Assembly (NCBI RefSeq): GCF_024502345.1
Contig: NZ_JALDNN010000001.1
Length of the DNA stretch: 64,000 nt
Source: Escherichia coli
Lineage (GTDB): Bacteria > Pseudomonadota > Gammaproteobacteria > Enterobacterales > Enterobacteriaceae
Direction: 5' to 3' (one strand)
Part shown: one piece after another, positions 30,100 through 33,000 of the stretch
Position numbering within the stretch: position 1 is the stretch's first letter
How the letters are laid out: every line of letters starts with the position of its first letter
Position numbers: made by a program

Positions 30100-33000
30100 A
30101 TCGACTTCGAAGGTTCGAATCCTTCCCCCACCACCATCACTTTTCAAAAGTCCGTAAACTCTCAAACGAATCCGCAATTAAATATTCTGCCCAAGCGGGG
30201 AAGGATGAGAAGCTTCGACCAAGGTTCGACTTGAGCGCCAGCGAGAGAGCGTTGCCGCAGGCAACGACCCGAAGGGCGAAGCGCGCAGCGCTGAGTAATC
30301 CTTCCCCCACCACCATCGCTTCCTGAAATAATCAAAACCTGTTACTCCGAGCTAATTTTGCCCAATGGCACCACGTTTACCGGACCTACAATATCCTCCC
30401 CTGTAGGTCGGATAAGCGAAGCGCATCCGACAACTCACCCCGCACCGTGCCCATAAAAAAACCCCGCCGAAGCAGGGTCTATGTGAACTAAAATTCGCTT
30501 AGTGACGAGCGCGCACCAGCTGGTACTTACGTGTCAGATACTCCACCGGTACGCTCCAGATGTGTACCAGACGCGAGAACGGGAACAGCAGGAATAACGT
30601 CATCCCCAGCACCAGGTGTAGACGGAAGATAAACGCCACACCATCGAGGTGTTGAGAAGCGCCACCGTGGAAGGTCACCACCGACTGCGCCCAGCCAACC
30701 AGTTTCATCATCTCGCTACCGTCCATATGCTGAGCGGAGAATGGAATGGTCAGCAGGCCCAGCGCGCACTGGATAACGAGCAGCGACAGGATCAGGATAT
30801 CCGCTCCGGTAGTGGTTGCACGCACGCGTGGGCTGAACAGACGACGCTTCAGCAACAGCACGCCGCCAATCAGACACAGCACACCGCTGGCACCACCAGC
30901 AAACATCGCCATTTTCTGTTTCACTTCAATCGGCAGCCAGGCTTCATACATCCAGTGCGGCGTCAGCATACCGAAGAAGTGACCAACAAAAATCCCCAGA
31001 ATACCGATATGGAACAGGTTCGACGCCAGGTTCATCCCTTTGCGATCCAGCATCTGGCTGGACGCCGCGCGCCAGGTGTACTGCCCGTAGTCATAACGCA
31101 GCCAGCTACCAATCAGGAAGACCGCCCCGGCTATGTACGGGTAGATATCAAAGAAGAACATATTCAGGAATTGCATTAGTGCTGTCCTCCGGTGGTGATA
31201 TTCAGATATTGCGGCGCGACGGCACCGGCAAAGCGACGCTGATGAGCAGTGATTGCTGAATCACCGCAGCCTTTGTCAGCAAAGAATTTAACCTGCTCTT
31301 CTTCCCAGACAGCATCCAGCGCCTGCGGCGTATCGTCGCGCGCTTCGTCGGCAATTTTTTCCGCCACTTTGTCGCTGTCGATAGCGGTATTCGCCAGTTT
31401 CATCAGCAGATCAAACAGCACGGCATAACGGCTTTCACGCTGTTGCAGACGCGCGCTCAGCAATGCCAGAATCGGCGCGATATCTTTCAAACCTTCCACG
31501 GCTTCGCTTTGCGGTAGCTGCGCCAGGTACTCCAGATACAGCGGCAGATGGTCCGGCAATTCGCGGCTGTTTAACTGCAAGCCGTGCTGCTCGTACTGCG
31601 CCAGCAGGTCCACCATCGCCTGGCCGCGGTCGCGGGATTCGCCGTGCACATGTTCAAACAGCAACAGTGACGTGGCGCGGCCACGGTCGAACAGTTCGCT
31701 GTACTGCGCCTGGGCATCGAGCGGATCCATCGTCGTTAAATCGCGCAGGAAAATGCCCAGCGCATGGGCATCCTCTTTTGGCAGATTTTTCGACGCGGCA
31801 ATCGCCTCAAACATCTCTTGTTGATGCTGCCATAAGGCAGCATCCGGATATTCAAGGAGACGCGATACAATCACGAGTTCGATCATGGATGCGGCTCCGT
31901 TTTGCTGGTCACATCGATGGCATCGATACGACGGCTGTTGAACAGATTGAATTTGGTATCTGAACCGTGGCAGCCATCACCAAAGGTAAAGCCGCAGCCA
32001 TTTTTCTCCGGGAAGGCTTCCCGTGCCAGTTCACGATGACTACTCGGCACCACAAAGCGATCTTCGTAGTTAGCAATCGCCAGATAACGGTACATCTCCT
32101 GTGCCTGGGCTTCGGTCAGACCGACCTCTTCCAGCGCACGGGTATCCACTTTCCCGTCAACGGTTTCAGCACGTTTGTAATGACGCATCGCCAGCATACG
32201 TTTCAGCGCGCGCAGTACCGGTTTGGTATCACCGGCGGTCAGCAGATTCGCCAGATACTGTACCGGAATACGCAGGCTTTCGACGTCTGGCAGAATGCCG
32301 TTGCTACCCAGCTCACCCGCGTCTGCTGCAGACTGAATCGGAGACAGAGGCGGCACGTACCAGACCATCGGCAGTGTGCGATATTCTGGATGCAGCGGCA
32401 GCGCCAGTTTCCATTCCATTGCCATTTTATAAACCGGCGACTGCTGTGCGGCTTCAATAACGCTCAGCGGAATACCGTCTTTAATCGCCTGCTCGATGAC
32501 TTTCGGATCGTTCGGATCGAGGAACACCTCCAGCTGACGCTGGTAAAGATCTTTCTCGTTCTCGGTGCTGGCTGCACGTTCAATCGCGTCGGCATCGTAC
32601 AGCAGCACGCCAAGATAACGGATACGACCGACACAGGTTTCTGAGCACACGGTCGGCTGACCCGCTTCAATACGCGGATAGCAGAAGATGCACTTCTCAG
32701 ACTTACCGCTCTTCCAGTTGAAGTAGATTTTTTTGTACGGGCATCCGGTGATGCACATACGCCAGCCACGGCATTTATCCTGGTCGATCAGGACGATGCC
32801 ATCTTCTTCACGCTTGTAAATCGCACCGCTCGGGCAGGTCGCCACACATGCCGGGTTCAGGCAGTGTTCGCACAGGCGCGGCAAATACATCATAAAGGTG
32901 TTTTCGAACTGGCTATACATCGCCTTCTGGATGTTGTCGAAGTTCTTGTCTTTCGCCAGTTTGTCAAACTCACCACCCAGGTCATCTTCCCAGTTCGGCC

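Follow-up and report, generated by a model that had tools for sequence, protein, structure and literature searches.

Organization of the tRNA-Tyr locus

The window, i.e., the whole stretch of 64,000 nucleotides of Escherichia coli DNA that was analysed, contains a tyrT-tyrV locus flanked by purU and narI, the same neighbours as in K-12. The promoter-like site, two tRNA-Tyr genes, and a single RtT repeat unit follow one another on the plus strand, and the narGHJI operon converges on them from the minus strand. The region comprises the following features:

Upstream of the tyrT promoter-like site, in the plus-strand order of the region: end of purU
29855–29882, plus strand: tyrT promoter-like site (hexamers TTTACA and TATGAT spaced by 16 nt, the latter preceded by TG; 10 of 12 matches in a consensus scan)
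29933–30017, plus strand: tRNA-Tyr (GUA), equivalent of tyrT (ARAGORN; Rfam tRNA, 53.4 bits)
30018–30051, plus strand: tyrT-tyrV spacer of 34 nt (direct reading)
30052–30136, plus strand: tRNA-Tyr (GUA), equivalent of tyrV and identical to the first (ARAGORN; Rfam)
30137–30315, plus strand: single RtT repeat unit, made up of a leader and a structured core and ending in CCTTCCCCCACCACCA
30205–30294, plus strand: remnant of the tpr-frame ORF, split by TGA into 9 and 19 codons (translation)
30232–30234, plus strand: TGA at codon 10, with the variable base T30232
30137–30316, minus strand: antisense ORF of 59 codons, with the N-terminal 52 residues of K-12 YchS
30397–30432: REP-like palindromic element (including tgtaggtcggataagcgaagcgcatccgaca) that separates the RtT unit from the narI terminator; K-12 has one there too
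30459–30480, minus strand: intrinsic terminator-like hairpin, followed by a T run, where the convergent narGHJI operon ends (terminator scan)
30499–31176, minus strand: narI ORF, annotated as narI in matching E. coli loci

The promoter-like site occupies the same position upstream of tyrT as in K-12, and a G+C-rich stretch lies between it and the first tRNA gene; we take it to be the functional, stringently controlled tyrT promoter. The tyrT-tyrV spacer of K-12 measures 209 nt and includes a degenerate RtT unit, whereas that of the window is only 34 nt long. The short spacer was found in many other E. coli (e.g., at loci L002, L105, L107, and L109), and both forms are common in the species. 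The junction in the 34-nt spacer looks like the product of recombination between a tRNA gene and a repeat at their identical 3′ ends.

Positions 20000–40000 of the window, compared as a 20-kb piece with complete genomes, reached a best E. coli identity of only ~99%. This piece also matched dozens of extra places per genome, many of them plasmid-borne, which indicates the presence of IS elements inside the window. The DNA thus probably stems from an IS-rich Escherichia or Shigella-type lineage that the searched E. coli collection does not contain.

The unit downstream of tyrV belongs to the RtT family

A 178-bp repeat, present 3.14 times, was reportedly described for this operon by Egan and Landy in 1978, and Rossi et al. 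are said to have dealt in 1981 with termination and processing of the transcript. In K-12, plasmid-borne rtT is also reported to affect how relA mutants grow. In the window, the repeat unit lies directly 3′ of the two tRNA-Tyr genes, on the same strand and within the tyrT operon. The Rfam model of RtT (RF00391) matched positions 30184–30315 of the plus strand over its entire length (model positions 1–130 of 130), with a score of 134.2 bits against a curated gathering score of 45 bits (E = 6.3e-29). The tpr-frame ORF is therefore embedded in the rtT repeat, as had been claimed in a preliminary description of the locus. No non-canonical pair was flagged in the Rfam alignment, and bases 30299–30315 are identical to the 3′ ends of both tRNA-Tyr genes (30001–30017 and 30120–30136; …TCCTTCCCCCACCACCA). 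The unit is thus a member of the RtT family on every criterion that could be tested.

With the RtT of K-12 (rttR, b4425) the window unit shares the position after tyrV, the closing stem, the internal hairpins, and the 3′ end identical to that of tRNA-Tyr. It differs in number, since K-12 has three units after tyrV and the window only one, with none in the tyrT-tyrV spacer. It also has U in place of C at one paired position, which results in a G-U wobble; the third unit of K-12 does likewise. According to the account of Bösl and Kersten (1991) given in PMC3318445, the rttR/rtT RNA is processed from one of the repeat units in the K-12 operon, and this RNA has been tied to the stringent response (preprint 10.1101/2024.07.17.603846). 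By analogy, the RtT of the window would be a discrete RNA of ~170 nt processed from the tyrT transcript, which, if it followed the pattern of K-12 rttR, would start ~7 nt after tyrV.

The interrupted frame is identical to the last repeat unit of K-12

The preliminary description had reported a TGA at codon 10 of the ORF at 30205–30294, and had given codon 10 of K-12 Tpr as Arg (CGA). Translation of the window confirmed both the reading frame and the stop (TGA, 30232–30234), and translation of NC_000913.3 showed that the K-12 codon had been given correctly. As the codon-10 stop is a direct reading, no chance statistic applies to it. In the curated annotation of NC_000913.3, the locus contains rttR (b4425), tpr (b1229), tyrV, and tyrT, with ychS (b1228) on the opposite strand. 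The tpr gene lies on the minus strand (1287087–1287176) and encodes 29 aa; the window frame differs from it in one of 90 bases (89/90 identical). The start, the stop, and the frame are the same, and the remaining 28 of 28 codons are identical.

K-12 has four RtT units in total, three after tyrV and one in the tyrT-tyrV spacer, and the state of the tpr frame in each of them is as follows:

Spacer unit, in the 209-nt tyrT-tyrV spacer: degenerate, GTG start, TAA at codon 6
Unit 1 after tyrV: annotated tpr, intact frame
Unit 2: TAA at codon 6
Unit 3 (last): TGA at codon 10

Alignment with MG1655 therefore gave two different answers depending on the unit. Unit 1, which is tpr, has CGA, whereas unit 3 has TGA and is identical to the window over the ORF (90/90 bases) and its tail. 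In other words, the reference carries the same stop, but in its last unit and not in the one annotated as tpr. The identity with unit 3 begins in the closing stem (alignment column 59) and lasts until the unit ends, and the narI-side 3′ flank is the same. In the window unit, the 5′ leader has a mosaic make-up and is about as distant from the leader of K-12 unit 1 as from that of unit 3. By position, the window unit is the first and only one after tyrV, and by its body and 3′ flank it corresponds to unit 3; one-to-one orthology with unit 3 applies to the body and 3′ flank only.

One reading of the TGA is that originally put forward, namely a true loss-of-function nonsense change (CGA to TGA) in a protein-coding tpr gene. 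In its favour, codon 10 reads CGA in the annotated K-12 tpr, whose frame departs from that of the window at this one base only; in addition, C is the majority state across species. The change can indeed be described as C to T relative to the annotated tpr codon 10, but the presence of an identical TGA copy in K-12 unit 3 argues that it is not a mutation that hit tpr. The window lacks an uninterrupted 29-codon ORF, and its body and 3′ flank match unit 3 rather than the tpr-bearing unit 1. Judged from these sequences, the window genome would be one that has no tpr-bearing copy, not one that carries a mutated tpr.

The antisense strand provides a second case of a frame that changes with the repeat. 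K-12 ychS (b1228, "putative uncharacterized protein", antisense to the repeats) encodes 91 aa (locus L001, 1210–1485, plus strand) and is an antisense frame that runs across RtT units 3 and 2. The same antisense frame is found in the window, where the first 52 residues are identical, but it has 59 codons instead of 91, because only one unit is available and the frame leaves it and enters tyrV. Hence, ychS looks like another ORF made by the repeat.

Variation of the locus among E. coli genomes

We searched 5,426 complete E. coli genomes (Shigella excluded) for exact matches to the two versions of the 90-base frame, counting the best match and not every unit per genome. The exact window 90-mer with TGA was the best match in 2,645 records; for the exact 90-mer of K-12 tpr, the count was 2,029. 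Both versions may co-occur in one genome, as they do in K-12. Between 727 and 761 of the 5,426 genomes had no match at all to the 90-mer. As an exact sequence, the TGA version is thus commoner than the intact tpr, and together with K-12 unit 3 these counts largely refute a nonsense mutation in a coding tpr gene, a reading that we now regard as improbable.

The arrangement of the window is also widespread. The 701-base interval from the end of purU to the narI flank was covered to at least 80% in 1,645 complete genomes, which implies a similar architecture in them, with a best identity of 99.4%. Locus L002 contains an RtT unit identical to that of the window. We considered whether T30232 might be an artefact of sequencing, or of an assembly in which repeats had collapsed, as tandem 178-bp repeats are prone to collapse and one assembly labelled MG1655 (CP025268.1) has a repeat content unlike that of NC_000913.3. 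The recurrence of the exact 90-mer in 2,645 records, and of the whole single-unit architecture in ~1,645 complete genomes, led us to reject an error, which we consider very improbable.

Twelve E. coli loci, chosen as a stratified sample, were read in detail. They contained 1 to 7 RtT units and 2 or 3 tRNA-Tyr genes, and the spacer unit was either present or absent; across E. coli strains, the number of units ranges from 0 to at least 7. The tpr frame was intact in some units of the sample and had TGA at codon 10 in others. Wherever this TGA was present, it was in the last unit, and in one strain it was in all three units. Still others were closed at codon 6 (TAA) or at codon 25 (TGA), had ACG as the start codon or a 7-nt deletion there, or contained a 14-nt triplication or a 1-nt frameshift. 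The tyrT-tyrV-RtT locus is extremely plastic.

Three strains illustrate the range. Strain JNEC-KY204 has three tandem tRNA-Tyr genes (L108, NZ_AP045180.1, 1111–1433), and strain FT130 has seven annotated RtT units (L102, NZ_CP040090.1, 451–1790), among them units with an ACG start, a 7-nt deletion at the start, and a 14-nt internal triplication. In an assembly labelled K-12 MG1655 (L113, NZ_CP025268.1, 1124–1611), all three post-tyrV units have TAA at codon 6 and none has an intact tpr, unlike NC_000913.3, suggesting either gene conversion in a laboratory lineage or an artefact of repeat assembly or polishing.

Constraint on the RtT unit at the level of the RNA

We derived a consensus fold from 119 distinct RtT units with RNAalifold. 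It consists of a 9-bp closing stem (GGGGAAGGA with UCCUUCCCC), a T-arm-like hairpin, and three further hairpins, and double changes keep the pairing in 8 of 28 pairs. The closing stem contains the Shine-Dalgarno (SD)-like purines and the A of the ATG of the tpr frame. The variable base T30232 corresponds to column 38 (alignment A2), which pairs with a G at column 51. This pair is C-G in 117 of the 119 units; the exceptions are the window, with U-G, and a single unit with A-G. The adjacent pair 36–53 covaries strongly (UA in 75 units, CG in 23, and GC in 14).

Because the partner of column 38 is a G, the change from C to U leaves a G-U wobble, and the RNA should be almost unaffected by it. Minimum free energy folds of the two alleles, at −48.5 and −50.3 kcal/mol and with slightly different boundaries, had the same shape; the fold of the window unit resembles that of K-12 unit 1. 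The C is strongly conserved outside E. coli (CGA at the codon 10 position in 142 of 154 units), implying that T is the derived state and restricted to a lineage. Since the frame is already closed upstream of this position in most units, the conservation of the C is attributable to the helix and not to an Arg codon. The T allele might thus not be entirely without effect on the RNA.

Coding potential of the tpr frame

The behaviour of the frame outside E. coli was assessed with a pattern search of one genome per GTDB species. This returned 99 loci, nearly all from Enterobacterales and typically adjoining tRNA-Tyr, and no typical E. coli, E. albertii, E. fergusonii, or Shigella genome was among them. 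In the 97 loci outside E. coli, the tpr frame is stopped by TAA at codon 6 in 104 of 154 units, and only 19 of 154 are open for at least 29 codons; several of the latter are truncated units in which the frame runs into unrelated sequence. In addition, a 1-nt indel at alignment column 44 gives rise to two different downstream frames past codon 11. Across species, tpr therefore lacks the signature of a coding sequence, i.e., an open frame and indels in multiples of three. A frame that is shut at codon 6 in two thirds of the units of other species and shifted by a 1-nt indel speaks further against a nonsense mutation in a protein gene, and so does the lack of any protein family or PGAP-annotated CDS, as described below.

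The Tpr protein had no match at E-values up to 10 among Pfam and NCBIfam models, and the exact protein falls in a cluster of nine 29-mers, restricted to E. coli, that differ by single residues. All 13 PGAP-annotated RefSeq loci, including one from MG1655, were annotated with "RtT sRNA", and none of the 13 has a CDS at the tpr frame. An open frame of this length needs no particular explanation in such a repeat: with the composition of the unit (62–63% G+C and 13% T), 28 sense codons stay open with a probability of ~0.45, so that a 29-codon ORF is unremarkable here. The closing stem also argues against efficient initiation, since the SD-like GGGGAAGG is, together with the A of the ATG, part of the 9 bp formed with CCUUCCCC.

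In 1981, Altman et al. reportedly proposed a protamine-like protein and claimed a small basic polypeptide from this region, which makes translation of unit 1 in K-12 possible. Our literature search on Tpr translation or function, whose reach did not extend to the older primary papers, gave annotation-level mentions only, and in none of the papers covered was the peptide reported as detected in cells; the mentions were in a table of the Keio update, a table on sigma-S transcription, a preprint on the mobilome, and a paper on sRNA evolution. Overall, the tpr ORF is probably a chance product of the repeat, and these lines of evidence suggest that Tpr is either not made or not functional. Alternatively, Tpr could be a real and very young micro-protein, born de novo inside a copy of a tRNA-derived repeat and subject to presence/absence polymorphism, in which case roughly 40% of genomes would have an intact frame and the others one that is stopped, shifted, or deleted, and the window strain would be a natural null. 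We give little credence to this scenario.

We also considered recoding of the TGA, by selenocysteine insertion or programmed readthrough, with production of a full-length peptide. The one observation that fits is that the sequence past the TGA continues in frame as in K-12 Tpr. The frame is not conserved, other units have TAA in the same frame, and neither a SECIS nor another recoding element was found among Rfam matches with E-values up to 1 in positions 28500–31500. We therefore rejected UGA recoding, the likelihood of which we consider negligible.

A non-coding repeat copy as the probable source of the interrupted frame

Taking together the sequence identities, the population counts, the lack of frame conservation, the pairing partner of the variable base, and the covariation, we consider it very likely that the 90-base frame is the body of an ordinary non-coding RtT repeat copy and not a damaged protein gene. 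RtT would be a structured non-coding element of tRNA-Tyr origin, transcribed together with tyrT-tyrV and then processed out. The number and content of the units would presumably shift by unequal recombination or gene conversion among the units and the tRNA 3′ ends, with individual units differing by a few bases. The one unit of the window represents the same variant as the last K-12 unit, next to the narI flank, with T at column 38, and tpr would be the one unit of K-12 in which the 29-codon frame happens to be open. The T allele would then be a nearly neutral variant of the narI-proximal lineage of units, and the tpr frame of K-12 a by-product of the repeat. As such, the feature is already known: it is part of the copy-number and sequence polymorphism of RtT, and the K-12 reference has the allele, as do about half of all complete E. 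coli genomes.

How the window came to have a single unit is a separate matter. A possible, if tentative, account is that tpr was lost by deletion, with unequal crossing-over in a K-12-like ancestor with several units removing units 1 and 2 and the spacer unit and leaving a chimeric unit with an upstream leader and the body of unit 3. Consistent with this account, the window leader has AATTAAAT in common with K-12 unit 1, whereas CTCAAACG and CCCAAGCGGGG are found in unit 3, and the range in the number of units (0 to 7) and of tRNA-Tyr copies (2 or 3) points to frequent recombination. However, the single-unit haplotype is widespread (identical in L002 and similar in 1,645 genomes), so that any deletion would be old and not specific to this strain. 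The change may also have gone in the opposite direction, the single unit being older and K-12 having expanded.

If the frame is the body of a non-coding RtT copy, as we favour, its biological weight is small and its weight for annotation slightly greater. The tpr and ychS coding sequences of K-12 are frames set by the copy of the repeat that is looked at and by the number of copies. Since the frames depend on the copy, comparing a single-copy strain with the K-12 gene model can suggest a false pseudogene. Comparative pipelines would do better to treat the locus as tRNA-Tyr plus an RtT RNA of variable copy number, as PGAP does.

RtT-like units in contigs labelled as other bacteria

A few matches came from contigs with labels outside Enterobacterales. 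In a metagenome-assembled genome of Cellvibrionaceae (L042, 2941–2967), an RtT-like core was found 62 nt downstream of a tRNA-Gln gene, and in contigs labelled Chryseobacterium (L061) and Martelella alba (L080), RtT units adjoin tRNA-Tyr. These matches suggest either mislabelling or contamination, or a wider spread of repeats derived from tRNA 3′ ends.
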